Notes: generated from the sequence alone by a model not told the origin. A stretch of DNA of 55,971 bases from an uncultured Candidatus Saccharibacteria bacterium (GCA_964456235.1 CAYWDX010000001.1:267210-323180); one strand, 5' to 3'. Numbered from the stretch's first letter, positions 4,728 through 51,744 are shown. A program made the numbers and translations.

Positions 4728-7236
4728 TTACGAATTGTATTTTGATGACCCGCGCCTGCGCATGTCGCTCGGCGGCCGGTTCCTGGTCCGCGCGCTCACC
4801 TGGATTGCTTACCTCATTATGTTGGCCGCAACGTGCACCGCGCTTATTTCAGAAATTCCCGCGCTCCGCGACTTGGGAATTTTTCTCGCGCTCGTTTTGA
4901 TTGACCGGATCGTGCACGTGCGCGAAGCCGATCTCCCCGTTTCCGAATTACCGCCGTCGGGCAAAATAAATGTGGCGAGGTTGATGCGCCCGGCGTCGCT
5001 CGCGGTGCTCGGCCGCGTATTTGATCGCGGCATGATCGCGAAGCGCGATTTCTTCCTCGTCACGGCCGGCCGCCTCCTTGATCTCGACCATATTGAAGAA
5101 GGATTGCGGCGCCTCGACGTCGAACCAAAAGAATTCAAAACCAAACTTAAGGAATTTTTAATGGGAGTTTCGGGAGATGCGGCTGCGGAGGGGGGATCGG
5201 TTCGCGATGTCTATTTGAAAAACGCAGAAGAGCTTGCGGTCGCAGCGTTTCGCATCGCGATTGGGGCCGGGCACAATTTTATTGAACTCTCCGATCTCTT
5301 TTCTGCGCTGCCCGTCGCGGGTTCGGAGCAGGTCCAGCGACTTTTCGGCATGTTCGCGATCGAGGCGGGCGACTTGAACCGCGCCCTGATTTTTTCTTCA
5401 GAGCGGCATCTCATGCATCGCTTGCCGGGCTATCTCGGCGGGTTCATTTTTGAAAGGAACCGCGGGCGGCGGCATCGGATCATGAACCGAGCGTGGACCG
5501 CGCGGCCGACCCCGATGCTCGATGCCTACGGCACCGATTACACCGACCTCGCGCGCGAGGGAAGTTCGGGATTTTTGGTCGGGCACGCAGCGGAATATAA
5601 TCGGCTGGTTGAAATCCTTAGTCGGTCGCTGAATCCAAACGCGATTTTAGTGGGCGATCCGGGCATCGGAAAAGAGGCGATCGTCCGCCATCTCGCCCGC
5701 TCGTTTGCGAAAGATCAAGTTCCGGAGGCGCTTTTCGATAAGCGGCTCGTCAGTCTTGAAATCCAAAAACTGGTCGCCGGTGCGGCGCCCGAAGAGCTCG
5801 CCGCGCGGATCAAAAAAATCGTGGACGAAATTTATATGGCGGGGAATGTCGTGCTCTACATCCCCGACATTCACAACCTCGTGCGCACTTCGGGCCCATA
5901 TCTTTCCGCGGCCGACATCTTGATGCCCGTCATCATGAGCAATGAATTCCCGATCATCGGCGGCACGTTCCCGAAAGAGTATAAATCGTTGCTTGAGCCG
6001 CGGAGTGATTTCGTCAACGTTTTTGAAATCATTACGGTAAACGAAATTTCTCCAGAAGAAGCGGAGACCATCCTTTCCTATGAAGGTTTGATTTTGGAGC
6101 ATGAGCATCGCGTGATGATTTGCTTCAGCGCCGTGAAGCGCGCGGTCGCTCTCGCGAAAAAATATTTCCATGAGCAATATTTGCCGGCGAGCGCCGAAGC
6201 GCTATTACGGAGCGCGCTCGTCGCCGCCGAAAAGCGGGGTGAGAAGCGGTTAACGGCGGATCGGGTGACGGCGGTTGCGGAGACGAAAACCAACGTGCCG
6301 ATCGCGGAAGCGGGCAAGGATGAATCGCAAAAATTATTGCATCTTGAGGAAATTATTCACGAGCGCGTGATTGGCCAGGACGAAGCGGTCGCCGCGGTCG
6401 CTGTCGCGCTCCGCGAATACCGGAGCGGCCTCGCGCGCAAAGGGGGCCCGATCGCGAGTTTCCTGTTTGTGGGCCCAACCGGCGTCGGCAAAACCGAACT
6501 CGCAAAAGTTTTGGCACGCGCGCAGTTCGGTTCCGAAAAAATGATGTCGCGTTTCGACATGACGGAGTACCAAAGCAAGGAAAGTTTCACCCGCTTCATT
6601 GGCTCGCCGGACGGGGAACGGCGGGGGGCGCTCACCGAGGCGATCCGCGAAAAGCCTTACGGAATCGTCCTTCTGGATGAATTCGAGAAGGCCCACCCCG
6701 ACATTTTAAACCTGTTTTTACAGGTGCTGGACGACGGCCGCCTTACCGACAGCATGAACCGCACCGTGGATTTCACGAATACTATTATTATCGCAACGTC
6801 GAACGCGCATTCTGACCTCGTGAATGAGTCGCTTGCGAAAGGCGAGTCTATGGATGCCATCGCCGAATATCTTAAGAAAAAATTAACCGATGTTTTTAGG
6901 CCGGAACTCGTCAACCGCTTTTCGCGGATCATCGTTTTCCATGAGTTGCGGCCCGAGGACCTTCCAAAAATTGTGATGCTAAACTTAGAGGAGCTTGCAG
7001 CGTCAGCGAAGGAGAAAGGAATTACGGTGAGCTTTGACCCCGCTGCGGTGAGAGCGCTTGCGAAGCTCGGCTACGAACCCGCGTTCGGCGCGCGACCGCT
7101 CCGGCGCGTGATCGAAGAAAAAGTGCGCGCGGTCCTCGCGCAGGCAATTCTTGAGCGGAAATTCGCGAAGGGGAGTAAATTGAAATTGGTCGTTTCGGGC
7201 GATAACGCATTCAGCTTCGAGGCATATGAGAATTAA
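4708..7236 (+). CDS. membrane-anchored ClpA/ClpB/ClpC-like double AAA+ ATPase with degenerate first nucleotide-binding domain
   Basis: N-terminal TM helices (WIAYLIMLAATCTALISEIPAL..). NBD1 Walker A is GDPGIGKE (not GKT) and Walker B is LYIPDIHN (no DE). NBD2 is canonical ([32 protein letters not shown]). ATG 4708 is preferred over 4657. Confidence 0.75.
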   Translation: MPPIAPNYELYFDDPRLRMSLGGRFLVRALTWIAYLIMLAATCTALISEIPALRDLGIFLALVLIDRIVHVREADLPVSELPPSGKINVARLMRPASLAVLGRVFDRGMIAKRDFFLVTAGRLLDLDHIEEGLRRLDVEPKEFKTKLKEFLMGVSGDAAAEGGSVRDVYLKNAEELAVAAFRIAIGAGHNFIELSDLFSALPVAGSEQVQRLFGMFAIEAGDLNRALIFSSERHLMHRLPGYLGGFIFERNRGRRHRIMNRAWTARPTPMLDAYGTDYTDLAREGSSGFLVGHAAEYNRLVEILSRSLNPNAILVGDPGIGKEAIVRHLARSFAKDQVPEALFDKRLVSLEIQKLVAGAAPEELAARIKKIVDEIYMAGNVVLYIPDIHNLVRTSGPYLSAADILMPVIMSNEFPIIGGTFPKEYKSLLEPRSDFVNVFEIITVNEISPEEAETILSYEGLILEHEHRVMICFSAVKRAVALAKKYFHEQYLPASAEALLRSALVAAEKRGEKRLTADRVTAVAETKTNVPIAEAGKDESQKLLHLEEIIHERVIGQDEAVAAVAVALREYRSGLARKGGPIASFLFVGPTGVGKTELAKVLARAQFGSEKMMSRFDMTEYQSKESFTRFIGSPDGERRGALTEAIREKPYGIVLLDEFEKAHPDILNLFLQVLDDGRLTDSMNRTVDFTNTIIIATSNAHSDLVNESLAKGESMDAIAEYLKKKLTDVFRPELVNRFSRIIVFHELRPEDLPKIVMLNLEELAASAKEKGITVSFDPAAVRALAKLGYEPAFGARPLRRVIEEKVRAVLAQAILERKFAKGSKLKLVVSGDNAFSFEAYEN

Positions 7237-12092: not shown

Positions 12093-12402
12093 GGGGACGC
12101 ATTGGTTTTGATAGCGATGTGTCATGGGTTTGCGGGCCGATGGCAGCGGCGTAATCGCTGCATGAACTAAAACTGCCAACGAACAAGTTGCAGTTCCGAG
12201 TTTCGCTTTTGCGTAACTCGGGATCGGCTACTTCGGGTCTCTTGAGGTAACACCGGTCTTATATAAGGGGACTGGCAGGGCGCCGACGATTCTAGGCGCT
12301 CCGCAAGAACCAGAATCATTCGGCCTAACTTGATTTAGGACACGCCCGTAGACGGCCCATCGACTTCATCGCTACACAAGGGTTCGAATCCCTTCGTCTC
12401 CA
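12093..12402 (+). ncRNA. ssrA: tmRNA (SsrA), tag ANEQVAVPSFAFA
   Basis: 5' GGGGACG pairs with 3' CGTCTCC, giving the G3:U wobble. T arm is AAGGG-TTCGAAT-CCCTT with discriminator A. The internal tag frame gcc aac gaa caa gtt gca gtt ccg agt ttc gct ttt gcg taa is at 12175-12216. smpB lies 3 kb away. Confidence 0.85.
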
Positions 12403-12472
12403 CAAAACAAAGATTGATAGTGTATGATTAATATATCTAGTTCGTAACTGTTAGGCGGCATGCACCAATAAA

Positions 12473-15187
12473 ATGAAAAAGGGCATACGGTTATTTTCTT
12501 CAGTCTTCATCTCATCGGTTGTGGCTTCAGGAATCATCACTCCTGTATTTGCCCAACTTGGCGGTGTCACTGCTCCGCCCGCTCCGGTTGAACCAAGCCA
12601 GATTGTTGCGCCCATGGTCCCATCCGCAGATACTATTCCGCCGGTCATATCGGGTGTCCTCGAGGCGTCCCTTCTCCCGACTGAAGCCACGATAGTATGG
12701 GCGACCGACGAACTCGCGGTCTCAACGCTCGAATACGGCACGAGCCAAAACTACGGCTCGCAAGCGGCCATTGGTGCAAGTGCACTCCTCGTCCATACCG
12801 CCACTCTTTTAAACCTCACGCCCGGCACGACCTACTATTATTGCATTCACGCGACCGATTTGACGAATAATGCTGCGCAGTCGTGCCCGCATGCTTTTAC
12901 CACGGCAGCTGCTCCGGCTCCTTCGAGCGATTTGGTCGGGACGACTTCCGTCGTTCTTGACGCGAATCCGCCTACTGTTTCGCTCATCACCATTGCTGCG
13001 ACCGGGACCTCGACTATTACTATTACGTGGACGACCGATGAAGTTGCGAACGCTGAAGTCGAATATGGGACGACGGCCGGATATGGCTCCGTATCTGATC
13101 TCGACAGCAATTTAGCGCTTACTCATTCGGTGACTTTGGCCAATCTCACGCCCAGCACCGAATATCATTATCGAATCAAATCGAGTGATGAGGTTGGCAA
13201 TCTTGCCGCAACAACCGACGAAACATTCACCACGAATGCATTGCCGCAGGTGTCCGTCGGTCTCACTGCTCCAGAAGCAACCTCAAGCGGATCCCTCACG
13301 AACGGCAGCCAAAATATTTCCGTAAGTGTTTCGTCCGTCGTGTTTTCTGGCATCGAAACGGCGAGCGTGGGGACTTCATCCGTGGTTATTCACTGGACGA
13401 CCGATCTGCCATCGGATTCGCAGGTAGAATATGGCGACGGCGTGCTCTTTGGATCGGCAACAACGCTCGACCGCGCGCTCATCACCGATCACTCCGCAAC
13501 GATCACCAATCTTTCGCCACATACCAATTATATTTTTCGGGTCAAATCAAAACCCTTTGGAACCTCGGTCGCAACAGTTTCAGGCAATCATGAATTCAAC
13601 ACACTTGCAGGAACAGTTCTCGCGAGCGCTCCGGCGGATGTGAGCAATGTCCAGTCGCCGGGCATTACCACGTCAACGGCGATGATCGCTTGGAACACCG
13701 ATGTGAATGCAACCGGGGAGGTGCAGTACGGAATAAGCACTGCGTACGGCGAATATGCTGCTCCCGACGCCAATCTTTCGATGTCGCATGCCATTGTTTT
13801 GAGCGATCTTGCGCCAAGCACCCTCTATCATTATCGGGTGAAATCGGTGAACGTTGCGGGAGACATTACATATTCAGAGGATTATGCTTTCACCACCCTT
13901 TCGACCGGTTTGGCCGGCCCGTCACCGGCAGGTTCTCAATCTTCATCCGGCGGAACTGCGGTGGGCGTAACAGCGCACATCCCTACGGCTCTTTCAAATA
14001 TTACTATTGCGTCGCACGATGAAAACTCTGCGACACTTACCTGGAGCGTGGCATCGGCGCACGCTGATGCAGCGGAACTATACGACATTCGCTATAGCAC
14101 CCAGCCGATTACGGCGAATAACTTTATGGATGCAGTCCAGGACCGGACAACCCCGATTTTGTATCCGGACGTATCGCCCAGCGGCGCCATCCGCACGTAC
14201 CTCGTGGCAGGTCTGCAACCTAATACGACCTATTATTTTGGCTTGAAATCAAAATACGAAACGAGCGATTGGTCGCTGCTTTCGAATGTTGTTTCCGTCA
14301 CAACTCCACCGGCTAGCTCGGGGCCTTCGAGCGGCAGCGGAGGTTATTACGATCGCATTAATGCGCCGATCGTGACGGGTGCGGAAGGTCTTGATTCTCA
14401 GATTGTGCTTAACTGGAAAAATCCAAACACCGCGAATTTTGTCCGAAGCATGATCGTGGTAAAGAAAAACGGCGGATATCCAACCTCGCCGCAGGACGGG
14501 CAAATTATCTACGAAGGCAGGGGCGAGACGTTTGCCGATGCCAATCTCACGAATGGCACAACGTATTATTATGCTCTCTATTCCTACGACCATGCGAAAA
14601 ACTACTCGTTGCCGGTGCATGTGTCGCTTGCTCCGAAACAGGGAGTCTACCAAGAACAACTTATTGAACACCCGGTCATTGTTTCTAAAACCAGCGTCAA
14701 ACACTTTGTCGAAGTGCTAAAAAAAGGATCACACGATATCGAGGTTGAACATCTTCAGCAACTTTTGGCGGCGGGCGAAGGGCTCTATCCTGAAAAATTA
14801 ATTACCGGATATTTCGGCACGCTGACCGAGCAAGCGGTAAGGCGTTTTCAGGCCCAGCATAATCTCCCGCAGACCGGCATCACCGATGGAGCAACGCAAA
14901 AAGAACTCACCGCAGTTTCTAAAGCCGAGTTCGTCTTGGAACTTCCTCACGATGTCGAACTTTTCGAGCGTGATGTGTATTACGGGCAAACGGGTCCCGC
15001 AGTGGAATATCTACAAAAATTCTTGATCTACGAAGGAAGCTATGCGGAAGCGATCGTAAGCGGTTATTTTGGAGATTATACCCGCAATGCGGTGATTAAA
15101 TTCCAGAAAAAATATGGCGTAAATCCCGCCGTAGGATTCGTTGGCCCCAAGACGCGCCACGCAATGCGCAAGATCACCGGCTTTTGA
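12473..15187 (+). CDS. large secreted surface protein: tandem fibronectin-III / purple-acid-phosphatase-N-like domains plus two C-terminal peptidoglycan-binding (PG_binding_1) domains
   Basis: Signal peptide MKKGIRLFSSVFISSVVASG. At least five repeats of the pattern T.T..W.TDE.A...VEYG....YGS......L...H...L..L.P.T.Y.YR..S. C-terminal GYFGTLTEQAVRRFQAQHNLPQTGITDG and GYFGDYTRNAVIKFQKKYGVNPAVGFVGPKT. Confidence 0.75.
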   Translation: MKKGIRLFSSVFISSVVASGIITPVFAQLGGVTAPPAPVEPSQIVAPMVPSADTIPPVISGVLEASLLPTEATIVWATDELAVSTLEYGTSQNYGSQAAIGASALLVHTATLLNLTPGTTYYYCIHATDLTNNAAQSCPHAFTTAAAPAPSSDLVGTTSVVLDANPPTVSLITIAATGTSTITITWTTDEVANAEVEYGTTAGYGSVSDLDSNLALTHSVTLANLTPSTEYHYRIKSSDEVGNLAATTDETFTTNALPQVSVGLTAPEATSSGSLTNGSQNISVSVSSVVFSGIETASVGTSSVVIHWTTDLPSDSQVEYGDGVLFGSATTLDRALITDHSATITNLSPHTNYIFRVKSKPFGTSVATVSGNHEFNTLAGTVLASAPADVSNVQSPGITTSTAMIAWNTDVNATGEVQYGISTAYGEYAAPDANLSMSHAIVLSDLAPSTLYHYRVKSVNVAGDITYSEDYAFTTLSTGLAGPSPAGSQSSSGGTAVGVTAHIPTALSNITIASHDENSATLTWSVASAHADAAELYDIRYSTQPITANNFMDAVQDRTTPILYPDVSPSGAIRTYLVAGLQPNTTYYFGLKSKYETSDWSLLSNVVSVTTPPASSGPSSGSGGYYDRINAPIVTGAEGLDSQIVLNWKNPNTANFVRSMIVVKKNGGYPTSPQDGQIIYEGRGETFADANLTNGTTYYYALYSYDHAKNYSLPVHVSLAPKQGVYQEQLIEHPVIVSKTSVKHFVEVLKKGSHDIEVEHLQQLLAAGEGLYPEKLITGYFGTLTEQAVRRFQAQHNLPQTGITDGATQKELTAVSKAEFVLELPHDVELFERDVYYGQTGPAVEYLQKFLIYEGSYAEAIVSGYFGDYTRNAVIKFQKKYGVNPAVGFVGPKTRHAMRKITGF

Positions 15188-17447: not shown

Positions 17448-17538
17448 TTAAAAATTTATTACTATTGTGAGTGGGCGATACACCGCGCACGACACGTTTT
17501 CGTTGTAAAAGCCCGTACAATCTGATAATTTGAAGGGA

Positions 17539-20500
17539 ATGGCCAAGCAATCTGCCAATAATCCTCGCAATTTTTTAAATGATGGCTTCGATTTGCCGAA
17601 GCTCGAGGAGAAAGTGCTGGCCTACTGGGACGAGAAAAAGATTTTTGAAAAATCGCTTGCCGCGACCAAGAAGGGCGAGCCCTACGTCTTTTACGAGGGG
17701 CCGCCGTATGCGAATGGGAAACCGGGAATCCACCACGTTCTCGCGCGCGTCGTGAAGGACGTCATGCTGCGTTACAAAACCATGCGTGGGTATCACGTTG
17801 CGCGCAAGGCCGGGTGGGACACGCACGGTCTCCCCGTTGAAATGGCCGCCGAAAAAGCGCTGGGCTTGAAATCGAAACGCGACATCGAAAAATTTGGCGT
17901 CAAGCGATTCAACGAAAAGGCGAAGGAGCAGGTGTGGATTTATAAAGATGAGTGGGAGCGCCTCACGCGACGGATTGGGTACTGGCTCGATCTTAAGGAT
18001 GCGTATGTCACCTACGCGCCTGAATATATAGAGACGATTTGGTGGACGCTCGCGCAAATCTATCGCCGCAAGCTTCTCTATAAGGGGCACAAAGTGGTGC
18101 CGTGGTGCCCGCGCTGCGGAACGGCCCTCTCCTCGCATGAACTGGCGCAGGGGTACCAGGAGGTGGTTGATAATTCCGTTTTCATTAAATTTAAATTAAA
18201 ACCCGGACAGCGGATCGCGAATTTTGTTACCGACGATGCGACCTCCGTGCTTTCTTGGACCACGACGCCTTGGACGCTTCCCGGAAATGTCGCACTCGCG
18301 GTTGGCGAAAATATCAATTATGCCTTCGTGAGGACGACGGCGCCGGATCGCGCTTCCTATCTTGTCGCAAAAGATCTGGCCGCGGAAATTTTTAAAGACA
18401 GCGACTTCGCAGTCCTCGGGGAAATTCCTGGCCGACGTCTTGTTGGCCTTGCATACCAGCCGCTTTTCAATGTGAAGCCACTCCAAACTGATGCCGCGCA
18501 TAAAATTTATCCGGCATCGTTCGTGACGACGACGGAGGGCACAGGCGTCGTGCATACGGCGGTCATGTATGGCGAAGACGATTATGCGCTCGGCAAAAAA
18601 GTTGGCCTGCCAGAATTCCACACCGTGAGCGAGGAAGGAAAATTTGTTGACGAGGTGCCGGGGCTCGCGGGGGATTATGTCAAGGCAAAAAATACCGAAG
18701 AAAAAATCTTTGAATACATGCGCGGTCGCGGGAATCTTTTCCGCATCGTCCCGTTCAAGCATGAATATCCGCACTGCTGGCGCTGCGGTACTGCGGTTCT
18801 GTATTACGCGCGTGACTCGTGGTTCATCGCGATGAGTAAGCTGCGGAAGCAGCTGCTCGCGCAGAACAAAAAAATTAATTGGATGCCGCAGCACGTAAAG
18901 AAAGGACGCTTTGGCGAATGGCTGCACGAAGCGAAGGATTGGAATTTGTCGCGCGAGCGTTACTGGGGCGCGCCCTTGCCGATCTGGGAATGTAAAAAGT
19001 GTGGACATACGGCGGCGATCGACGGGCTCGACTCCCTTTCGAAGCTGGTTGGTCCCGCGCAAAATCGTTACTGGGTGATGCGCCATGGCGAGGCGGAGCA
19101 TAACGTCTTGGGGATACTGGACAGCGGGCCGCGAAATTCTCCACTCACGCCAAAAGGCAAAAAAGAGGTGGCGCGCGAGGCGAAGCGCCTTAAAAAAGCC
19201 GGGATCGACGTGATTATTTCTTCTGAAGTCATGCGCGCGAAACTGACGGCCGAGATCGTAAAGAAAGAGCTTGGCGTGAAGCACCTGCACTTCGACAAGC
19301 GCCTCAACGAAATCTTTTTTGGGCCGAAATTCGAAGGAGGGCCGGTCCGCGCGTATTGGACCGCGTATCCGACGCATGAAGAACGTTACGAAAAACGGCC
19401 GCCGGGCGGCGAGTCGTTGCGCGATGTGCGCGCCCGCGCGTGGCAGCTTCTCAAGGATTGCGAAAAGAAATATAGCGGAAAGAAAATTTTATTTGTAAGC
19501 CATGGCGACCCGATCATCATGATGATCGAAGCGGCGACTGGCCTATCAGAAAAGAAAACCGTTGCTGATTATCTTGAAAGCCGCGGAATGCTTCATAGCT
19601 TGTACCCTAAAAAGGGAGTGCCCAGAGCAATGCACGTGCGTTGGGGTCCGCGCGACGAAACTGGCGGCCTCGATCTCCACCGGCCGTTTGTCGATGGCGT
19701 GACCGCGGTATGTCGAGAATGCGATGGCGGCACGATGCACCGCGTGCGTGAAGTTGCTGATGTTTGGTACGACTCGGGCGCAATGCCGCTCGCGCAGGCG
19801 CACTTTCCATTTGAGCCCGACGCGGCCCATACGGCGGCCATGAAAGCGACTCAAAAGTCTGCCGCGATCCCCAAGCCGCAGAAATTTATCGCGTACCCGG
19901 CCGACTATATTGCTGAAGGGATGGACCAAACGCGCGGGTGGTTTTACACGATGCTTGCGATTGCAACTGCATTGGGCTACGGGGCGCCCTATCGCAATGT
20001 GATCACCTTCGGCCTCATTAACGATAAATTCGGGCACAAGATGTCAAAGTCGAAGGGCAATATTGTCGAGCCGTTTTCGGTGATCGATACGTATGGCGTT
20101 GACGCAGTGCGCTGGTATTTCTATTCCGGGACGCCCTTCGGCGAACCAAAAAATTTTGACGAACAGGACATCGCGAAAACGCTTCGCAAAACCCATCTGA
20201 TCATTTACAACTCGTTCGTATTCTGGAAGACGTATGCGGCGCCCGACGGTACCGATCCGGTCGGCGCGCCGATGATGAGTGCACCGAAAAGCAGAAATAT
20301 TCTCGACCAGTGGATTCTATCGCGCCTGGCCGAACTGCTCGCGGCGGCCACGAAAAAACTCGATCATTACGAAATCCGAGAAGCGGCGATCGAGATCGAC
20401 GCCTTCGCGGACGATCTTTCCCGGTGGTACATTCGCCGCTCGCGCCGCCGTCTCCAAAAACCGGAACATGCGAGTGATTATAGGAGTGCTTCGGCCACGC

Positions 20501-21162
20501 TCGGTTACGTTCTCTTGGCCCTCGCGACCGTGATGGCGCCCTTTACGCCATTTTTCTCGGAAGTGATGTACGCCGCACTTCGTGGCAAGAAGGAATCGGT
20601 GCACCTTGAGCCATGGCCAACGAGGGGAACGCCCGTCCGCGCGCCACAGTCCGCACCCACCCTCAATAAATCATTAAATGCTTCCATGGCCGCCGTCCGC
20701 GAACTCGCTGCGCTCGGCCTCGCCAGGCGCGCGGAAGCCGGCGTGAAGGTCCGCCAACCGCTCGCTTCGCTCGCGGTTGGCGTCTCCCTCCCCGAGCCGC
20801 TCAAAAAAATTCTCGCCGAAGAGGTGAATGTTAAGAAGATTTTAATGAAGCAAACATTAAAGAACGGCGTCGAGCTCGATCTTGCCGTGACGCCCGAACT
20901 CCGCGCCGAGGGGATCCTCCGCGAAGTCGCGCGGATGGTGCAAGAGCTTCGCCAGAAAGCAAACCTCGCGCCTCGAGACCGCATAGCCCTCTTTATCGAA
21001 GGGGCGCCGGCGCTCCATGAAATACTTCGCGCGCACGAGGGTGCCTTGAAACTTGATGTAGGCGCTCGCTCAATTGAATATAAGCGCTCCAGCAGATTTA
21101 CGGCAGAAGAAGAAACAAAATTCGAAGGCGAGACGATCTGGATCGGTCTCCAGAAGGCTTAA
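17539..21162 (+). CDS. ileS: isoleucyl-tRNA synthetase (type 2-like) with an internal histidine-phosphatase domain insertion
   Basis: PPYANGKPGIHHVLARV, the editing domain TTPWTLPGN, WECKKCGH, DLHRPFVD, GMDQTRGWFY and KMSKSKGN. An RHGE-type domain is inserted at about 19060-19660. ATG 17539 is preferred over the upstream in-frame start at 17530. Confidence 0.95.
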   Translation: MAKQSANNPRNFLNDGFDLPKLEEKVLAYWDEKKIFEKSLAATKKGEPYVFYEGPPYANGKPGIHHVLARVVKDVMLRYKTMRGYHVARKAGWDTHGLPVEMAAEKALGLKSKRDIEKFGVKRFNEKAKEQVWIYKDEWERLTRRIGYWLDLKDAYVTYAPEYIETIWWTLAQIYRRKLLYKGHKVVPWCPRCGTALSSHELAQGYQEVVDNSVFIKFKLKPGQRIANFVTDDATSVLSWTTTPWTLPGNVALAVGENINYAFVRTTAPDRASYLVAKDLAAEIFKDSDFAVLGEIPGRRLVGLAYQPLFNVKPLQTDAAHKIYPASFVTTTEGTGVVHTAVMYGEDDYALGKKVGLPEFHTVSEEGKFVDEVPGLAGDYVKAKNTEEKIFEYMRGRGNLFRIVPFKHEYPHCWRCGTAVLYYARDSWFIAMSKLRKQLLAQNKKINWMPQHVKKGRFGEWLHEAKDWNLSRERYWGAPLPIWECKKCGHTAAIDGLDSLSKLVGPAQNRYWVMRHGEAEHNVLGILDSGPRNSPLTPKGKKEVAREAKRLKKAGIDVIISSEVMRAKLTAEIVKKELGVKHLHFDKRLNEIFFGPKFEGGPVRAYWTAYPTHEERYEKRPPGGESLRDVRARAWQLLKDCEKKYSGKKILFVSHGDPIIMMIEAATGLSEKKTVADYLESRGMLHSLYPKKGVPRAMHVRWGPRDETGGLDLHRPFVDGVTAVCRECDGGTMHRVREVADVWYDSGAMPLAQAHFPFEPDAAHTAAMKATQKSAAIPKPQKFIAYPADYIAEGMDQTRGWFYTMLAIATALGYGAPYRNVITFGLINDKFGHKMSKSKGNIVEPFSVIDTYGVDAVRWYFYSGTPFGEPKNFDEQDIAKTLRKTHLIIYNSFVFWKTYAAPDGTDPVGAPMMSAPKSRNILDQWILSRLAELLAAATKKLDHYEIREAAIEIDAFADDLSRWYIRRSRRRLQKPEHASDYRSASATLGYVLLALATVMAPFTPFFSEVMYAALRGKKESVHLEPWPTRGTPVRAPQSAPTLNKSLNASMAAVRELAALGLARRAEAGVKVRQPLASLAVGVSLPEPLKKILAEEVNVKKILMKQTLKNGVELDLAVTPELRAEGILREVARMVQELRQKANLAPRDRIALFIEGAPALHEILRAHEGALKLDVGARSIEYKRSSRFTAEEETKFEGETIWIGLQKA

Positions 21163-22177: not shown

Positions 22178-22870
22178 ATGAACAAATTTGAACGGAGGAC
22201 TTTCGTGCCGAGTGGTCAGGATGGCGTCGAAATATCTCAACCTGAGTCAGTGCCTTCGCCGGAAGTAGTCGATCATAAAGATAGAAAGGGCAAGTGGGGA
22301 TCGTTACGCAAGCTGATACTGATCGGCACCACTCTTGCGAGCGGTTGGCAGAGTTATGAGTTCTGGGCGCCCCGGGTTGAAGCGATGCGTGCCGAGAGAG
22401 GCAGTAAGGTTGAGTTTTCGTTAAAATCGAAAGTCGAGAATGGCAAGCAGACGGATTTCGCGATCGAGAAACAAGCCGACGGGAAATATATAGTGAGAGG
22501 ATCGATGCGCGGCGGGCCGAGCGTCGTTGCGCCAAAGGAAGGTGGCGGGTTTACCCAGGAGGGCGAGGGAGAGCTTAGTTTTGTGTTGCCGGCCTCAACC
22601 GATATTAAAGATTTCATGGATCGGCTGAAAACCGCACGCGATCCGGGTGAAGTTTTGAGCGACCTGTTCGATTCTTCGTCAGAAGGGACCTACATGAAAA
22701 CGGAGCGTAACGAAAAGGGGACCCATGTTGCCTATGAACTAAAATTTATCCCGGGCCACAAGGGTAAGCCTGCGCATGCGGTGGAAACTTCCTATGATGA
22801 TTCCGGAGAATCCCACACGACCCACATCGCGTTTACCGAGGGGGAGCGACGGGCCAAGAAGAATCTTTAA
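22178..22870 (+). CDS. hypothetical protein with one N-terminal TM anchor
   Basis: ATG at 22178 lies after the divergent trpS start. TM segment LRKLILIGTTLASGW. No recognisable motif. Confidence 0.5.
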   Translation: MNKFERRTFVPSGQDGVEISQPESVPSPEVVDHKDRKGKWGSLRKLILIGTTLASGWQSYEFWAPRVEAMRAERGSKVEFSLKSKVENGKQTDFAIEKQADGKYIVRGSMRGGPSVVAPKEGGGFTQEGEGELSFVLPASTDIKDFMDRLKTARDPGEVLSDLFDSSSEGTYMKTERNEKGTHVAYELKFIPGHKGKPAHAVETSYDDSGESHTTHIAFTEGERRAKKNL

Positions 22871-23114
22871 TAAAATCTTTAACGGAATTTTAACTGCACT
22901 GTGCTTTAGTGGTTTTGCGCGGTAAGCCAATCCTGGCCTGGGTCGATACCTCGCATAAAACAACACCACAACATAATAAACATAGATGAAGGAGATTTTG
23001 GAAAAGGCGCTCACTGACGGGGCCGCCCGCAAACCTCAAGCCATTGAGGATATCGCGGTTGAGCCGAGCAATGATAGTTTCTTGTCCTGGGATTCTTAGA
23101 TAGATCAGCCAGCC

Positions 23115-24551
23115 ATGGGCGCACCATCGCTAGATCCTTTAGGTAAGACATTGGCAACGCCGCCCAGCAATGGCGTAAAGCGCGCCCGGGCTTTGTGGCG
23201 CCTGTTTTTTGAGCCCAAATCTATCGATGAGGATGTAAGGCGCAGGGAATATATCTTGAACGTCATCCTCGGATGGTCGATGGTGATGCTGGCCGCGCTC
23301 GACGGCTCGGTATTGTACCACTCCATTACGCGTGGAAACGACTATCACGGTGTTTCCTTCTGGGCGTTTTCTGCCGTCGTAGTCTTCTTTGTCGGATTGT
23401 ACGCACTTTCACGCCGCGGGTATGTTCGCGCTGCATCGTGTTGCCTGGTCGCGTTGTATTTTGCTGGCGCGAGTTATGCCGCGTATGAATGGGGAGCGAA
23501 TTTGGAAACCGCATTGCTTGGGTACGCGCTCGTCATCGTTATCACGAGTATACTTCTCGGGACAGAGTTTTCATTTTTCGTTACCGCGGGCACCGGCTTA
23601 TTCCTTATCTCGCTATGGCACTTGCAATGGCATGAGTATATTGTGGTCCCAAAAAAACAGGTCAGCAGCCAAACGGACGCCGTCGTCTTCACTATCATTT
23701 TTCTTGCGATCACGGTGGTTGCGTGGCTTTCGAATCGCGAAATCGGCCGGTCTCTGTTCCGGGCGCGGACCTCGGAGCGGACTTTGAAAGAAGAGCGGGA
23801 CCTGCTCGAGGTCCGCGTAGAGGAGCGGACGCAGGCGTTGCGTGACAGTGAGCTGAAAAAGATCGAAGCGCTCTATCAGTTTGCTGAATTCGGACAGCTT
23901 TCTTCGGGGCTTTTCCATGATCTTTTGAATTTGATCAACGCGACCTCGCTGCAGAATGAACGACTGGCGCGCGAAGTCACGGAAGATGCCTTGGCGAACG
24001 CCAGGCGCGTGAATAAGCGGATGGAAAATTTTGTATCCGCCATGCGCCGGCAGCTTGCGCGGCAAGACACGCATGAAAACTTTGCGATAGGCGATATTGT
24101 CGAGCAGGCCATACAACTCCTGGCTTATAAAGCCAAAGAAAATCGCATCGAAATACTTTTTCATGGGACCCCGGGCATGGAATATGCCGGCAGCCCGTTT
24201 AAATTTCATCAGGTGGCGATGAACCTGATCCTGAATGCGATCGAATCGTACGCCGATGCTGCGGCCGTCGAAGCTAACCGTCGCCTCGTCGAGGTGCGTG
24301 CGCGATATGATGGGGATCGGGTCGTTTTGGAGGTGCAAGATTATGGCTGCGGCATTGCGCCCGATATCCAGAAAAAGATATTCGAGCCGTTCTTCACGAC
24401 AAAAAGCCTGAATGGTATGGGCATTGGCCTTGCAACCGTAAAGAAAATAGTTGAGCAAGATTTTCATGGAACCATCGCAATTGAAAGTCAGACAGGGAAG
24501 GGAGCTTTATTTGCCATCGCGCTTCCGCGAGGAATGCGCCGCGATCGTTGA
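23115..24551 (+). CDS. sensor histidine kinase (polytopic N-terminal sensor, HisKA + HATPase_c); no response regulator adjacent
   Basis: About six TM helices and a coiled coil. H-box SSGLFHDLLNLINA, N-box NLILNAIES, G-boxes QDYGCGIAPD and FFTTKSLNGMGIGLATVKKIV. Confidence 0.85.
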   Translation: MGAPSLDPLGKTLATPPSNGVKRARALWRLFFEPKSIDEDVRRREYILNVILGWSMVMLAALDGSVLYHSITRGNDYHGVSFWAFSAVVVFFVGLYALSRRGYVRAASCCLVALYFAGASYAAYEWGANLETALLGYALVIVITSILLGTEFSFFVTAGTGLFLISLWHLQWHEYIVVPKKQVSSQTDAVVFTIIFLAITVVAWLSNREIGRSLFRARTSERTLKEERDLLEVRVEERTQALRDSELKKIEALYQFAEFGQLSSGLFHDLLNLINATSLQNERLAREVTEDALANARRVNKRMENFVSAMRRQLARQDTHENFAIGDIVEQAIQLLAYKAKENRIEILFHGTPGMEYAGSPFKFHQVAMNLILNAIESYADAAAVEANRRLVEVRARYDGDRVVLEVQDYGCGIAPDIQKKIFEPFFTTKSLNGMGIGLATVKKIVEQDFHGTIAIESQTGKGALFAIALPRGMRRDR

Positions 24552-26433
24552 TTCTGCCGTTCGCTGTATTGCTGCCGAGCAGCGGCCTGATGGGGGATTC
24601 GCGCATCGCTCGAGTTCTGACCAGGATGATTTTTCTCGCGGAGGGGATTACGTCACGACATTTTTTACGGCGAATATTCTCGCCTGTTTAAACGCGGTCA
24701 AAAATCCGTGGCGCGATTTTCCTGAAGTTCAAATAATAAAATCACGGGCGGCTCTTTTTCTATTGCGCGAGAAAAGCAGTCGCTGGTCTTTTAACTATTG
24801 GTCGCGCCGTGAGCCGATGCGCAAAAGCCGACCGTACCCCGATGATTTGGATGATACCTTTGTCGCCTTGCGCGCCCTGTATGGTTATCAACCCTCGCTC
24901 GTTGACGGTTCAGTCCTCGCGAGCGTCGTTAAGATTCTTTCCGAGGCCCAAACGTCGCCGGGCGGTCCTTATGTGACGTGGCTTGCCGGGCCAGGTGCCG
25001 GCGTCAAGTGGAAGGATATCGACTTGGCGGTGAATGCGAATATTGGTTCGTTTCTCAAAAGTTTTCGAGTTCACCTGCCTCAATTGGACGACTTCATTGA
25101 GCGCAGAATTTCAGAAAATGCAGTTTGGTCGCGCTACTATCCTTCCGGAAATGTTGTCGATTATTTCGTTGCACATTATGGTCACGCGAGCGGTGGCTCC
25201 GGCTTTGCTTCCGGTACCGCTGCCGTCGCTCAAAGAATATTGCGCCGGCGTCTTCGATCTGGAGGGTGGGGGAATCCGTTGGAAACTGCGATGGCAATTT
25301 CTGCTCTTGGTGATCTGGGTTTTAGGGAACATATTAAAGAGGTAGACATCGCGGAATTCATCGAGGCCCTTCAAAGGGGTGGATGGAAGGCACATCCATT
25401 TTGTCTCGATCCGGCTCGCGACGGCGAGCGGCATTACGCAGGGTCGCCGGCGCTGACCGCAGCGCTGTGCGCCGAATCCTTATCAAAATTTTTGGATGAT
25501 GATGGGCATGCATCGGAAACAATCCTTCGAAAAATAAAAGATTTTGCTCTTGATCGCGCCGCGCATCTTCCGCGCCCGCTCCGCGGAGTTATTTGCCGCG
25601 AAATTAAATCGTTCAACAGCGTCGAAGTTGTCGCCCTGCCGTTTCGGGTCGCTCGCGCGCTGGGCGCCCTCGATTCGATCGACGACGATTTTCTTGAACG
25701 ACTTGCACTCGCCAACTTCTATGGCTGGATCGCGTATTCCCGAATTGATGACCTTTTGGATGGTGATGCTGGCATGGCAACTCTCCCGGTCGCGAATTTC
25801 TTCCTTCGAGAATTTTCTGCACAATACGAAGCTTTGGCCCGGGAAATCAATGGCCTCGACGCCTATTACTCGGCGATCATGGGCGCGATGGATAATGAAA
25901 ATTTTCTTGAACAGGCGAGCCCTCCATCACCTGAAATGCCTGGCTTTAGCCACTTCGCCCGCCGCAGCATGGGGCATGCGCTCCCGGCGATCGCTATCTG
26001 CCTGAAACTTGGCCACCATGACCAGCGCGACCTCGATTCGCTCATGGCATTCTTTCGTAACTATCTCATCGCACGGCAGCTCCATGATGATGCACGTGAT
26101 TGGCTGAAGGATTTTGGGCGCGGCAAACTGAACAGTGTCGGTGCATACCTCGCGAAGATATCGAATACCAGTTCGTACACCCCAGCCGTATTTAAAACTC
26201 TTTTTGAGGAACGTGGCGTTGATTGGGTGGCTGGCCGCATAAAATCTCACACCCACCGCGCTCGCGCAGCCTTGCGCAAAATGAAAATCATCGTCGATGC
26301 CGCTCCACTCAATGCGTTACTCGAGCGGCTTGAAGTTGCGGCTGATCGCAGCATCAAAAACCGGGATGATATCCAGAAATTTTTAAGAACCTTTGCGCCC
26401 TCGGAGGGAATCGAACCCCCATCAAGACCTTAG
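24466..26433 (+). CDS. two-domain isoprenoid-enzyme-like protein: N-terminal class II terpene-cyclase/prenyltransferase-type alpha-alpha barrel + C-terminal class I (polyprenyl-synthase-like) domain
   Basis: N-terminal half has QW-like repeats (AAEQRPDGGF, RSGGWGNP, LQRGGWKA) and PDDLDDTFVALRAL (DxDDT). C-terminal half has YSRIDDLLDGD and ARQLHDDARDW (two DDxxD motifs). The start is uncertain (ATG 24451/24466 or TTG 24511) and all candidates overlap the kinase gene. The 3' end overlaps the antisense tRNA-Arg. Confidence 0.55.
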   Translation: MEPSQLKVRQGRELYLPSRFREECAAIVDSAVRCIAAEQRPDGGFAHRSSSDQDDFSRGGDYVTTFFTANILACLNAVKNPWRDFPEVQIIKSRAALFLLREKSSRWSFNYWSRREPMRKSRPYPDDLDDTFVALRALYGYQPSLVDGSVLASVVKILSEAQTSPGGPYVTWLAGPGAGVKWKDIDLAVNANIGSFLKSFRVHLPQLDDFIERRISENAVWSRYYPSGNVVDYFVAHYGHASGGSGFASGTAAVAQRILRRRLRSGGWGNPLETAMAISALGDLGFREHIKEVDIAEFIEALQRGGWKAHPFCLDPARDGERHYAGSPALTAALCAESLSKFLDDDGHASETILRKIKDFALDRAAHLPRPLRGVICREIKSFNSVEVVALPFRVARALGALDSIDDDFLERLALANFYGWIAYSRIDDLLDGDAGMATLPVANFFLREFSAQYEALAREINGLDAYYSAIMGAMDNENFLEQASPPSPEMPGFSHFARRSMGHALPAIAICLKLGHHDQRDLDSLMAFFRNYLIARQLHDDARDWLKDFGRGKLNSVGAYLAKISNTSSYTPAVFKTLFEERGVDWVAGRIKSHTHRARAALRKMKIIVDAAPLNALLERLEVAADRSIKNRDDIQKFLRTFAPSEGIEPPSRP

Positions 26434-26467
26434 AAGAGTCCTGCTTTATCCATTAAGCTACGAGGGC
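26396..26467 (-). tRNA. tRNA-Arg (anticodon TCT)
   Basis: Reverse complement is GCCCTCG-TA-GCTT-AATGGATA-AAGC-A-GGACT-CTTCTAA-GGTCT-TGAT-GGGGG-TTCGATT-CCCTC-CGAGGGC-G. Confidence 0.85.
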
Positions 26468-26557: not shown

Positions 26558-26628
26558 CGGGCTGTAGTGTAACGGCAGCACGAGTCCTTTGGGAGGATTT
26601 AGTCCCGGTTCAAATCCGGGCAGCCCGA
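26558..26628 (+). tRNA. tRNA-Pro (anticodon TGG)
   Basis: CGGGCTG-TA-GTGT-AACGGCA-GCAC-G-AGTCC-TTTGGGA-GGATT-TAGT-CCCGG-TTCAAAT-CCGGG-CAGCCCG-A. Confidence 0.85.
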
Positions 26629-26631
26629 CAA

Positions 26632-26730: not shown

Positions 26731-26754
26731 TGCTTCTTCATATTGGCGGAAATG

Positions 26755-26826
26755 TGCCGCGGGGGTGAATCGAACACCCGACGCCAGCCTCTTCAGGGCT
26801 GCGCTCTGCCACTGAGCTACCGCGGC
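26755..26826 (-). tRNA. tRNA-Phe (anticodon GAA)
   Basis: Reverse complement is GCCGCGG-TA-GCTC-AGTGGCA-GAGC-G-CAGCC-CTGAAGA-GGCTG-GCGTC-GGGTG-TTCGATT-CACCC-CCGCGGC-A. It directly abuts the stop codon of the S1 gene. Confidence 0.88.
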
Positions 26827-32768: not shown

Positions 32769-33248
32769 ATGAAAAATATTTCACGGATCGGTGATCGAAA
32801 ATATATTCTTCTGCCGTTGATTGTTTTTGTTCTCGCCGCGTACTGCCTCCCGCTCTTCGCGTCGGCGTCGGTTAACAATCACGCGACGAATAATGTTTGG
32901 GATCCGAGGATTTTACAGGGCCCGCTCGTCGTGTGCACCGGCGACGGCAGCGGCGGATTCCCCTGTGAAAGCTTGTGCGACTTTCTGTATCAATCCGTCC
33001 ACGTCCTCTATTTCGCCATTGCCGTAATCATTTGGATTGTGGCGCCGATCCTGATTGCCTGGAGCGGCATCTCGCTCATTATGTCACGCGGGAATCCTGA
33101 AGCACAGACCAACGCAAAAAATCGGGTGACGCGCATCGTGCTCGGCCTTCTCATCGCGCTCTCCGCGTATCTCATCATCGCGACCTTTGTGAGCGTGCTC
33201 CATATCAGCGGGGTCGGTGGGTTCGGTGCGGGCATTTGCGGGGGATAA
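32769..33248 (+). CDS. VirB2/TrbC-like (T4SS-pilin-like) two-TM secreted protein, paralog 1
   Basis: Signal peptide and Cys-rich segment (CTGDGSGGFPCESLCDF), then TM1, loop SRGNPEAQTNAKNR and TM2. Same architecture as the five paralogs downstream. Confidence 0.55.
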   Translation: MKNISRIGDRKYILLPLIVFVLAAYCLPLFASASVNNHATNNVWDPRILQGPLVVCTGDGSGGFPCESLCDFLYQSVHVLYFAIAVIIWIVAPILIAWSGISLIMSRGNPEAQTNAKNRVTRIVLGLLIALSAYLIIATFVSVLHISGVGGFGAGICGG

Positions 33249-33252
33249 TAAA

Positions 33253-34146
33253 ATGAAAGTTCGAAGCATTATTATTGCGGCGACGCTTGGAGTCATGACG
33301 AGCGCGACCGCTTTTGCGCAATCGGCACCCTCGCACATTTCTATCGACACTTCGATCCCCGGCCTCGCCCCCGCAACAAGCATCTCAGGCCTCATCCAGA
33401 ACTTCTATAGCTTTGCGTTAGTGATAGCCGGGGTCTTAGCCTTTGGCGCCATTGTGTATGGAGGGATAAAGTATGCCGTAGGGCATGGGAATCCCTCGTC
33501 TGAGAGTGAGGGCAAAAGCTGGATCGTAGGGGCCCTCTTGGGCCTCCTTCTCCTTGCCTCTGCCTATATCATCCTTACCACGATCAACCCCGAGATCACG
33601 AAGCTCTCGATCCCTCAACTCCCTTCCCTGGACGCTGCCCGGACGGGGGAGGGGTTGGGGGGAGGGGCGAGCGTGGCGAGCAGTACAGGAGGTGCTAGTA
33701 GCACTACGCCATCGGGGCCGGGCGCTCGCTGCCAAGCGCCGGCATCGGGTGGATGCTCGGTAGCCAATTTGATGGCGAACGGCGGCAGTTGCTTCGGCAA
33801 CAACATCACGCTTGCCGCCGGCGTTTGTAATGTGGAAAGCGCGAACGGATCACTCCTTCAAAGTGGTGTAGACAAGTGCGATGATGGGAGCCCGGTTTCT
33901 TTCGGCGGGTTTCAAGTCAATATCACAGCGAATTCGGTTGCTGGTCTTGATTGCAGAAGCGCTTTCTCAAACCAATATACCGGGAGCAATCGGCACTGCA
34001 CGATAACGAACCGATCGCTGTATAATCAATGTGCACAGGCGGCCCAGAATTGGGCGAACAATATTGCCGCGGCTTGTCGGATTTCGAATGGCGGGACCAA
34101 TTTCCGCCTCTGGGGCCCGCAAACCCGACAGCTCTGCGGGATTTAA
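33253..34146 (+). CDS. pilin-like N-terminal domain (paralog 2) fused to Gly/Ser linker and Cys-rich lytic-transglycosylase-like C-terminal domain
   Basis: Signal peptide MKVRSIIIAATLGVMTSATAFA, then TM1, GHGNPSSESEGKS and TM2. The linker GEGLGGGASVASSTGGASSTTPSG follows. The C-terminal domain has 10 Cys and VCNVESANGS...SFGGFQVNI (SLT-like E-S ... G-x-x-Q). Confidence 0.5.
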   Translation: MKVRSIIIAATLGVMTSATAFAQSAPSHISIDTSIPGLAPATSISGLIQNFYSFALVIAGVLAFGAIVYGGIKYAVGHGNPSSESEGKSWIVGALLGLLLLASAYIILTTINPEITKLSIPQLPSLDAARTGEGLGGGASVASSTGGASSTTPSGPGARCQAPASGGCSVANLMANGGSCFGNNITLAAGVCNVESANGSLLQSGVDKCDDGSPVSFGGFQVNITANSVAGLDCRSAFSNQYTGSNRHCTITNRSLYNQCAQAAQNWANNIAAACRISNGGTNFRLWGPQTRQLCGI

Positions 34147-38314: not shown

Positions 38315-38395
38315 GCTGGGGTGGCGAAATGGCAAACGCACTAGCTTTAGGAGCTAGCGCCGCAAGGCTTGTGGGTTCAAGTCCCACCCCCAGCA
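38315..38395 (+). tRNA. tRNA-Leu (anticodon TAG), long variable arm
   Basis: GCTGGGG acceptor pairs with CCCCAGC. Anticodon stem CTAGC/GCTAG with loop TTTAGGA, variable arm CGCCGCAAGGCTT, T arm GTGGG-TTCAAGT-CCCAC, discriminator A. Confidence 0.85.
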
Positions 38396-38424
38396 CCGCC
38401 ATGTTCTGTTCGCCGTTCTCGTTA

Positions 38425-39315
38425 TCACTCGCGTCGTTTCCCGTGGAACGCATGGTGCACGTCGCGCAGCGCTTTGTTCGTGAGATGCGTATAGATCTGC
38501 GTCGTCGAAATATTTGAGTGGCCGAGGAGTTCCTGCACGGACCGGATGTCCGCGCCGTTCATCAAAAGATCGGTTGCAAAACTATGGCGTAACTCGTGCG
38601 CATGGACGTGTTTTGAAATGCCAGCTTCGAGCGCACGCGAGGCGACGAGGCGTTGCACCGCGCGCGGCGTCACGCGCCCGAGGACTTTCCCGCGCCGGTC
38701 GAGACTCACGAACAACGCCTCATCCGCATCGTCCCGCTTCGCCAAATATTTTTGCACGGCGTCACGCGCGGAATTGGAAATGAAAACGATCCGCAGTTTG
38801 TCGCCCTTCCCGCGCACCGTCACCTCGCCGCGCTTCACATCGATTGTGCGGTTTAAAGAGCAGAGCTCCGCGAGCCGCAGGCCGGTGGAGAAAAACACCT
38901 CGAGCGCGGCGCGGTCGCGGAGCGAGCGGAGGTCGTTGCCCTTCGGCGCCTTGAGGAGGCGCTCGAGGTCGGCATATTCGAGAACTTCGATTTGGCGGGA
39001 GGTTGTTTTCGGCAACTCGATTTTTTCTGCGGCGAGCGTTTTGATGTCGCGCTTCGCGAGATATTTCAGAAAATTACGAATCGCGATCACGTAGTAGCGC
39101 TGCGTATTCTTTTTTAGGTCCTCTCGCGCGAGCACTTTACGGAATTCTGTGACGGCGGCTTCGGTGATGTCTTTCGGGGAAGCGACGCCGGCAGCTGTAA
39201 TGAATTTTTTAAGATAGCGCTCGTAGTTTTCGCTCGTGAGGTGCGAACGATTCTTCTCTACTTCTAAGTAGTTCAAATAATCGCGGAGGAGGCGATGGAT
39301 TTCTGATGCGGGCAT
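38425..39315 (-). CDS. XerC/XerD-family tyrosine recombinase
   Basis: N-terminal SAM-like domain (YLNYLEVEKNRSHLTSENY). Catalytic residues lie in GLRLAEL, HELRHSFAT, LLGHSNISTTQIYTH. Confidence 0.88.
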   Translation of the reverse strand: MPASEIHRLLRDYLNYLEVEKNRSHLTSENYERYLKKFITAAGVASPKDITEAAVTEFRKVLAREDLKKNTQRYYVIAIRNFLKYLAKRDIKTLAAEKIELPKTTSRQIEVLEYADLERLLKAPKGNDLRSLRDRAALEVFFSTGLRLAELCSLNRTIDVKRGEVTVRGKGDKLRIVFISNSARDAVQKYLAKRDDADEALFVSLDRRGKVLGRVTPRAVQRLVASRALEAGISKHVHAHELRHSFATDLLMNGADIRSVQELLGHSNISTTQIYTHLTNKALRDVHHAFHGKRRE

Positions 39316-51572: not shown

Positions 51573-51667
51573 TGCTGGTATCCGGTGTCGCGGAGAATGG
51601 CGAGAGCTGCAGGATTTATAGATAATTGCGGCAAGAAAGTCAAACGTGCGGCTTCATCGCCGCTTCA

Positions 51668-51694: not shown

Positions 51695-51744
51695 TCGAAC
51701 CTTCTCGCCCTAAACTTGAGTATAATAATAGTAAGCTTACGCAC

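Follow-up and report, generated by a model that had tools for sequence, protein, structure and literature searches.

The window analysed here is a 55,971-nucleotide stretch of DNA from an uncultured Candidatus Saccharibacteria bacterium (GCA_964456235.1 CAYWDX010000001.1:267210-323180). It carries an operon-like cassette in which a gene for a small, tryptophan-bearing peptide and a gene for a sensor histidine kinase precede a gene whose product joins a class II terpene cyclase fold to a trans-prenyl-diphosphate-synthase fold. The remainder of the window holds housekeeping genes and, among the open reading frames (ORFs) scanned in these 56 kb, no isoprenoid or lipid genes were found, as had been stated in an earlier reading of the same DNA (hereafter, the original prediction). 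The features of the cassette are listed below; residue numbers follow the 660-residue ORF that begins at 24451.

22986..23099 (+): precursor peptide gene, 37 amino acids, MKEILEKALTDGAARKPQAIEDIAVEPSNDSFLSWDS (public gene call; homologues at the same position)
23115..24551 (+): sensor histidine kinase gene, 478 amino acids (HATPase_c match, hydropathy and synteny)
24451..26433 (+): bifunctional enzyme gene, a 660-amino-acid ORF with a TTG start; probable true start at TTG 24511 (640 amino acids)
24511..25485 (+), residues ~21-345: class II terpene cyclase beta domain, a single alpha/alpha barrel (profile and Foldseek)
Residues 44-50 (+): motif QRPDGGF
24838-24879 (+), residues 130-143: motif PDDLDDTFVALRAL
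24844..24855 (+): DxDD general-acid motif D132-L133-D134-D135, within PYPDDLDDT (Asp invariant, 79/79)
24961..24981 (+), residues 171-177: invariant GGPxxTW insertion, where the drimenol synthase AsDMS has a 6-residue gap
25138..25140 (+): Y230, predicted hydrogen-bond partner of the general acid (invariant; aligned to AsDMS Y427)
Residues 269-276 (+): motif RSGGWGNP
Residues 308-317 (+): motif QRGGWKAHPF
25498..26400 (+), residues ~350-650: trans-prenyl-diphosphate-synthase-fold domain, predicted tryptophan prenyltransferase (model and Foldseek)
25741-25767 (+), residues 431-439: motif RIDDLLDGD
25747..25761 (+): first Asp-rich motif, D433-D-L-L-D437, predicted Mg2+/prenyl diphosphate site (conservation)
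26077..26103 (+), residues 543-551: motif QLHDDARDW
26077..26100 (+): Q543-L-H-D546-D547-A-R-D550, second Asp-rich motif with a Gln one helical turn before it (conservation)

The original prediction had described the enzyme ORF as a chimeric isoprenoid enzyme with six quoted motifs; the ORF is present at the claimed position, with a TTG start, and all six motifs occur in its translation at the positions listed above. The motifs are not chance resemblances, because their residues D132, D134, D135, D433, D437, Q543, D546 and D550 do not vary across 79 aligned full-length homologues, and neither does Y230; this alignment, with a mean column identity of ~38%, was used for all residue-conservation counts given here. 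A first homologue search returned 84 database proteins, nearly all of 600-690 residues and aligned over ~93% of the ORF, and a HMMER profile search of 1.84 billion cluster representatives returned 3,806 matches at E <= 1e-3, 2,554 at E <= 1e-10 and 1,575 at E <= 1e-30. The highest-ranking 150, from which the architecture of family members was judged, are 573-698 residues long and are each covered end to end in one stretch. AlphaFold2, run on the whole protein with the 79-sequence alignment, gave a single continuous two-domain model (predicted local distance difference test score (pLDDT) 92.5, predicted template modelling score (pTM) 0.90), in which residues 1-17 are disordered. Two genes joined by a sequencing frameshift, the possibility that the original prediction had set against its own claim, are excluded, because the best 150 relatives are matched end to end and the model is continuous, as are the full-length homologues of the first search.

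The gene probably begins at the TTG at 24511 (residue 21), because a Shine-Dalgarno-like run (GGGAAGGGAG, at 24493-24502) lies upstream of it, most tblastn matches in related genomes start near query residue 31-33 and residues 1-17 are disordered; this start would cut the overlap with the upstream kinase gene to 41 nt. At the other end, the last 13 codons (26395-26433) are not conserved and overlap an opposite-strand tRNA-Arg(tct) gene (26395..26467, minus strand), beyond which lie tRNA-Pro (26558..26629, plus) and tRNA-Phe (26754..26826, minus), the three alternating in strand. The public gene call (P0001, 538 residues) begins at M123, a late start that drops ~120 residues (24451..24816) and removes about one third of the cyclase domain, just ahead of PDDLDDT; as both homologues and structure model bear out, the real ORF is the longer one, and P0001 is mis-called.

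Single-sequence searches of Pfam, NCBIfam and the PDB with the enzyme yielded nothing useful, and its domains became visible only through a homologue profile and structure prediction. The profile searches suggested with the original prediction had a divided outcome, empty for single-sequence Pfam and successful for the homologue profile, which found the cyclase domain of AsDMS. The family has no model in NCBIfam or in the local Pfam copy; the precomputed annotation of one homologue (P0081) carries PF28380.1, an accession absent from that copy, and part of the family may already be covered by a very recent Pfam model. The phyletic survey of the fusion, also suggested there, located relatives in 305 species-level genomes (tblastn against species-representative genomes) beside the 1,575 cluster representatives at E <= 1e-30, and the family appears to be confined to the Patescibacteria. 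All source-named matches among the 84 proteins of the first search were of Patescibacteria type or came from evidently mislabelled metagenome-assembled genomes. Labels such as 'Gammaproteobacteria' and 'Vitreimonas' on related loci in third-party assemblies are unreliable: for example, over 5,705 nt the DNA of one locus labelled 'uncultured Gammaproteobacteria' (L015) matches that of a Candidatus Microgenomates contig (L016) at 100% identity, and the target protein of another (L078) is 100% identical to that of a Candidatus Saccharibacteria locus (L079).

The N-terminal domain proved to be class II cyclase-like, as originally predicted. Searched against the PDB, the family profile matched AsDMS at E 1.4e-17 over residues 253-524, which form its class II cyclase (TCbeta) domain; squalene-hopene cyclases and MstE were matched weakly (MstE E 0.24). 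Foldseek with the full model likewise ranked AsDMS first (E 1.2e-9, root mean square deviation 3.3 Å), then the monodomain cyclases 8pak (8.5e-9) and 8paj, MstE (6e-7) and SsDMS, with squalene-hopene and oxidosqualene cyclases at 1e-4, and Pfam searches of the homologues gave sub-threshold matches to SQHop_cyclase_C and Prenyltrans. The LanC- or glycosidase-like barrel that the original prediction had named as the contrary outcome did not emerge, terpene cyclases ranking first by both profile and Foldseek. LanC, glycosidase and thioester-domain barrels were rejected, with cellobiose-2-epimerases and C3d far below the terpene cyclases in Foldseek and an insignificant TED_complement Pfam match (E 0.3).

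The catalytic residues of AsDMS have counterparts in the family. The DLDDT sequence aligns to the catalytic DLDTT of AsDMS, with D132 corresponding to D331 and D134 to D333, the general acid; in AsDMS, the substitutions D331A/N and D333N abolish activity and Y427F is inactive (PMC12365925). Residues F71, Y116, W117 and Y129 are the equivalents of the aromatic pocket residues F281, F318, Y319 and F328, respectively, and these four, together with D132, D134 and Y230, are invariant or at least 90% conserved. The arginines that hold the diphosphate of farnesyl diphosphate (FPP) in AsDMS are replaced: W187 stands in for R378 and D189 for R380 (each conserved at 95% or more), Pro for R425 (in 63 of 79 sequences) and Ala for R513. 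Judged by alignment, these replacements would suggest a substrate head other than a diphosphate, and the GGPxxTW insertion may form part of a pocket for a peptide or indole head group.

The C-terminal domain, when modelled alone (pLDDT 94.3), had best 50 Foldseek matches that were all trans-prenyl diphosphate synthases (GGPPS, HexPPS, OPPS, SPS and FPPS) or MoeN5, at template modelling (TM) scores of 0.6-0.73 (for example, GGPPS 5jfq at E 8e-5 and TM 0.67-0.69, and OPPS 3wjn at TM 0.70-0.73); no class I cyclase was among these 50. The domain is thus inside the class I isoprenoid fold, with the alpha fold and two invariant Asp-rich motifs that the original prediction had assigned to it, and the AlphaFold and Foldseek check proposed there recovered both the cyclase and the prenyl-synthase folds. 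A squalene/phytoene-synthase-like domain, considered on account of a DxxxDxxxG spacing past the second motif, was rejected on the same 50 matches. In the first motif, D433 and D437 are invariant and D434 is Asp in 67 of 79 sequences; at the second, the family consensus is QLxDDAHDW, with Q543, D546 and D550 invariant. In sequence searches, PF00348 (polyprenyl_synt) gave no match at E <= 10 to the window protein or 10 homologues, the family profile matched no PDB synthase over this domain, and no Pfam, NCBIfam or PDB sequence match to it was found; a search with an alignment of the C-terminal domain alone returned 10 matches, all family members, and is uninformative on distant relatives. Chain-elongating synthases carry a basic GKxxR motif that binds isopentenyl diphosphate (IPP) N-terminal to the first Asp-rich motif. 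No Lys or Arg position conserved at 80% or more was found N-terminal of that motif in the family (residues 350 to 452 scanned in the 79 sequences).

We assessed gene neighbourhoods at 83 loci: the window, two homologues and 80 from species-representative genomes. In the public gene calls of the window and the two homologues, an ORF of 37-40 residues is followed by a histidine kinase of ~430-480 residues and then by the enzyme, and the small ORFs are homologous, all ending F-x-x-W-(D/G/E)-S. Across the 83 loci, a homologous gene for a peptide of 34-48 residues precedes the kinase in 68 (65 distinct sequences), with a conserved leader (M-K-x-L-x-K-x-L-T-D-K-x-A-R-N) and a hypervariable core. Nearly all of these peptides (66 of the 68) have exactly one Trp, the Trp always lies 1-6 residues from the C-terminus, and in 42 of 68 a Pro stands immediately before it; the window peptide follows suit, with the conserved leader, a variable core and one Trp as the third residue from its C-terminus. 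NCBIfam gave no match for the precursor peptide.

In 75 of the 83 loci, the gene immediately upstream of the enzyme, and on its strand, encodes a homologue of the window kinase. The median gaps are 36 nt between peptide and kinase and -3 nt between kinase and enzyme. Hydropathy places 5-6 hydrophobic membrane segments with short loops in the first ~190-205 residues of the kinase, which has no large extracytoplasmic domain; its H-box is LFHDLLNLI (H268) and its HATPase_c core is matched by Pfam at 6.9e-22, with HATPase_c_5 weak. An AgrC/HPK10-type kinase was considered on the strength of that weak match and an HDxxN box, but is not claimed, because NCBIfam gives just generic HisKA-type and HATPase cores, leaving the sensor part unmatched. 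Unbiased all-against-all clustering of flanking ORFs (81 loci) identified three conserved neighbour families only: the enzyme (81/81), the kinase (79/81) and an OmpR-type response regulator (64/81), which is directly upstream and on the same strand in 54 of its 64 loci, giving the gene order regulator-peptide-kinase-enzyme. Together, these results describe two folds with invariant catalytic-type residues in four-gene synteny with a Trp-bearing peptide; the fold assignments of the original prediction were right, and the context of peptide, kinase and regulator was missed there.

Two further observations concern the surroundings of the cassette. A 230-residue protein with no Pfam or NCBIfam match (22178..22870) is encoded directly upstream of the precursor gene in the window, in the position of the OmpR-type response regulator in most related genomes. 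In a Doudnabacteria locus (L003, 3337..4712), genes for a reverse transcriptase (RVT_1) and a bAvd-like protein, hallmarks of diversity-generating retroelements, are situated upstream of the cassette of peptide, kinase and enzyme, at a distance of a few kb.

We propose, with a probability of roughly 0.6, that the enzyme is a peptide maturase resembling ComQ, PalQ and ChrPC, which prenylates the Trp of the precursor and then cyclises the attached tail, and that the product is sensed by the adjacent kinase. This reading is favoured because the enzyme gene is locked in an operon with genes for a Trp-bearing peptide and a sensor kinase. Specifically, the C-terminal domain would bind a prenyl diphosphate, probably C15 or C20, via Mg2+ on D433 and D437, with D546 and D550 probably helping to hold Mg2+ and the donor; it would then ionise the donor and move the prenyl group onto the single C-terminal-proximal Trp of the precursor, the indole being positioned by Q543 and the DDAHDW sequence, in line with proposals for PalQ, ComQ and the ChrPC P domain. 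In the N-terminal domain, D134, as the acid backed by Y230, would protonate the double bond at the end of the prenyl chain on the peptide, and a cationic cascade folded in the aromatic-lined barrel would produce a bi- or polycyclic terpenoid on Trp. Once the leader is removed and the product released, the lipidated peptide could be sensed within the membrane by the polytopic kinase, which has no extracellular domain, as would suit a lipidated ligand, and which in most genomes would signal via the OmpR-type regulator encoded beside it; on this view, the cassette would be a module for cell-cell signalling that resembles ComQXPA.

Several observations weigh against this proposal. No sequence link to ComQ, PalQ or ChrPC was found via Pfam or NCBIfam, and the enzymes are compared here by description only. 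An intact DDxxD forms the second Asp-rich motif, as in canonical synthases and PalQ and unlike the NDxxx of ComQ and StheQ, and four basic positions of the C-terminal domain (R453, R505, R542 and R605) are conserved, which leaves room for a second diphosphate site in this domain. Some of the diphosphate-binding arginines are dispensable in AsDMS (PMC12365925), so their loss from the N-terminal domain is suggestive and no more. For the cassette of the window, the entire 56 kb contain no response regulator, and no protease or exporter is conserved near the cassette in the clustering of flanking ORFs from 81 loci.

Three other explanations were weighed. A free-isoprenoid synthase, the chain-elongating role that the original prediction implied, would use the C-terminal domain to combine dimethylallyl diphosphate and IPP into FPP or geranylgeranyl diphosphate (GGPP) and the N-terminal domain to convert this to a drimenyl- or labdane-type diphosphate, as in PvCPS, under regulation by the two-component system. 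Both Asp-rich motifs are intact, the nearest folds are those of chain-elongating synthases, the cyclase domain is closest to an FPP enzyme and the four conserved basic residues could bind diphosphates; yet polyprenyl_synt is unmatched even at E <= 10, no basic residue is conserved ahead of the first Asp-rich motif, the diphosphate arginines of AsDMS are swapped for W, D, P and A, and no isoprenoid genes occur among the window ORFs scanned. Free-isoprenoid synthesis also leaves unexplained the Trp-bearing mini-gene found in the same operon in 68 of 83 loci; it is probably not the function, and we consider it distinctly unlikely.

That the peptide serves as an effector instead of a pheromone is an improbable explanation as well, albeit one to be taken seriously: the same peptide chemistry would give an antimicrobial or host-interaction lipopeptide, with the kinase and regulator acting in autoinduction or immunity (compare NisRK of lantibiotics). 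Many Patescibacteria live attached to host cells, the hypervariable cores also fit an arms race, and a cyclised-prenyl Nct peptide reportedly has modest anti-cyanobacterial activity. However, the cassette is not accompanied by conserved genes for immunity proteins, transporters or proteases, the minimal set of peptide, kinase, modifier and regulator resembles ComQXPA and PalPXQ, and a polytopic sensor without an extracellular domain fits a lipidated ligand. Finally, a single domain might be catalytic, with the barrel serving as a binder of the prenyl tail or leader (and the product a linear, ComX-like prenyl-Trp) or with the alpha domain serving as a scaffold; vestigial beta domains are well known from plant alpha-beta terpene synthases. 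Purifying selection on both active sites is indicated instead, because the two residue sets (the DxDD motif, its Tyr partner and F71, Y116, W117 and Y129 in one domain, and both Asp-rich motifs and Q543 in the other) are invariant or nearly so across the 79 sequences at ~38% mean column identity, and a one-domain enzyme therefore seems very improbable.

The original prediction held fusions of this kind to be known mainly from fungi and unusual in a bacterium. Fungal chimeras do exist, and the bacterial case has precedent: according to a 2026 review, which cites Hubrich et al. (2024, Chem 10:3224), NctPC and ChrPC are fused enzymes that attach a prenyl group to a Trp of a peptide and afterwards cyclise that group via a class II domain of the MstE-like type; in ChrPC, Trp prenylation with C10-C20 donors falls to the P domain and cyclisation to the C domain, and every characterised prenyltransferase of the trans-IDS-like kind (resembling trans-isoprenyl diphosphate synthases) targets Trp (PMC13290415). 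The ChrPC P domain and the C-terminal domain here are both trans-IDS-like, and a conserved Gln before the second Asp-rich motif is common to the two. The family described here differs from the known systems in five respects. Unlike NctPC and ChrPC, it has Patescibacteria-type hosts, its cyclase is nearer to the HAD-fused drimenol-synthase type (E 1e-17) than to MstE (E 0.24), its precursors (34-48 residues) form a family of their own with their own leader, and its cassette is coupled to a histidine kinase and regulator; in addition, its cyclase domain is N-terminal. The precursor families in the work of Hubrich et al. are reported to be proteusin, Nif11 or lasso peptides.

Parallels to the gene set come from prenyltransferases without a cyclase domain. 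In Paenibacillus, PalP (kinase), PalX and PalQ form a cluster of kinase, precursor and trans-IDS-like Trp prenyltransferase, in which the first and second Asp-rich motifs of PalQ are D89/D93 and D200/D204 and Q197 is modelled contacting the indole NH (PMC10853753). In the StheQ/StheX pair of Sphaerobacter, the Trp second from the C-terminus is modified, and the Gln in the StheQ structure is proposed to contact the prenyl donor (bioRxiv 10.64898/2026.08.29.745113). The spacing of Q543, D546 and D550 equals that of Q197, D200 and D204 in PalQ and of Q212, N215 and D219 in StheQ. As in the cassette here, ComQXPA of Bacillus, StheQ/StheX and PalPXQ combine an enzyme of the trans-isoprenyl pyrophosphate synthase (trans-IPPS) fold with a polytopic kinase and a short precursor whose Trp is at or close to its C-terminus, in a minimal gene set without a dedicated exporter; conserved in all are the first Asp-rich motif and a Gln placed one turn ahead of the second, and a regulator is also present in ComQXPA. 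In contrast, ComQ, StheQ and PalQ lack a cyclase domain, and the second motif is a degenerate NDxxx in ComQ and StheQ, whereas PalQ has DDxxD as here. ComQXPA also resembles the cassette in having modifier, pre-peptide, polytopic kinase and regulator adjacent, but differs in gene order and in regulator class, and the window itself is without a regulator. ComA, the regulator of ComQXPA, is of the NarL type.

Among terpenoid enzymes, AsDMS and other HAD-TCbeta proteins (PDB 9mhs, 9m7d-f) are the best match for the N-terminal domain, sharing a single beta barrel, the PDDLD(D/T)T sequence, the Tyr and the aromatic residues. AsDMS differs in having a HAD phosphatase as partner domain, in acting on free FPP held by arginines that are absent here, and in lacking the GGPxxTW insertion; no HAD domain was found in the family, the match to AsDMS spanning its residues 253-524 only. 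MstE (PDB 6sbb-g) is likewise a single beta-domain class II cyclase, whose prenyl chain is attached to an aromatic head and not to a diphosphate, but it is a stand-alone enzyme with a small-molecule substrate and 13-14% identity. The fungal enzymes PvCPS (prenyltransferase plus class II beta-gamma) and PaFS (prenyltransferase plus class I) also fuse a trans-prenyltransferase-fold domain to a terpene cyclase; there, however, the prenyltransferase elongates to GGPP, the cyclase takes free GGPP, the class II portion is a beta-gamma didomain and no peptide is involved. Chain-elongating synthases share the all-alpha class I fold and two DDxxD motifs, in contrast to the family's lack of a PF00348 match and of a conserved N-terminal basic motif.

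Our literature search found no paper linking Patescibacteria to ComQ, ComX or terpene cyclases, the text of Hubrich et al. (2024) lying outside its scope. Prenyltransferase-cyclase peptide maturases are already known as a type; neither the lineage from the Patescibacteria nor its link with a two-component system was found in the searchable papers. The Patescibacteria make up a large share of bacterial diversity and have tiny genomes; a four-gene module in at least 305 species-level genomes and ~1,500 protein clusters offers a testable signalling hypothesis for them. More tentatively, and at somewhat less than even odds, we suggest that Patescibacteria widely carry a signalling cassette consisting of a Trp peptide bearing a polycyclic terpenoid, a cyclase-prenyltransferase lineage independent of ChrPC and NctPC, and a dedicated kinase that senses within the membrane. 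If so, the hypervariable cores would serve as 'pherotypes', and the cassette would be, as far as we found, the first defined pheromone system in the Patescibacteria and a new class of terpenoid-peptide signal. For enzymology, this is a large unannotated family that combines a monodomain class II cyclase with a predicted trans-IPPS-fold peptide prenyltransferase, a kind of fusion first described in 2024, and that would tie a drimenol-synthase-type barrel to peptide substrates. For annotation, it illustrates how easily a precursor gene can be missed and how the enzyme gene of the same genome came to be called too short.

Elsewhere in the window, the isoleucyl-tRNA synthetase (17530..21162) is unusually long (~1,207-1,210 residues), with a His_Phos_1 match (PF00300) between two tRNA-synt_1 matches that may represent an inserted domain. 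A 904-residue protein (12473..15187) with PhoD_N and purple-acid-phosphatase N-terminal domains, fibronectin type III repeats and a peptidoglycan-binding domain adjoins the tmRNA gene (12093..12403) and SmpB. Two ClpB-like AAA+ ATPases are encoded at 4657..7236 (without a Clp_N domain) and 51646..54396, and two overlapping, adjacent ORFs at 32769..34146 have type IV secretion pilin-like domains (T4SS_pilin/TrbC). A tyrosine integrase gene (38425..39315, minus strand) adjoins tRNA-Leu(tag) (38315..38397), a site that may mark the edge of an integrated element.

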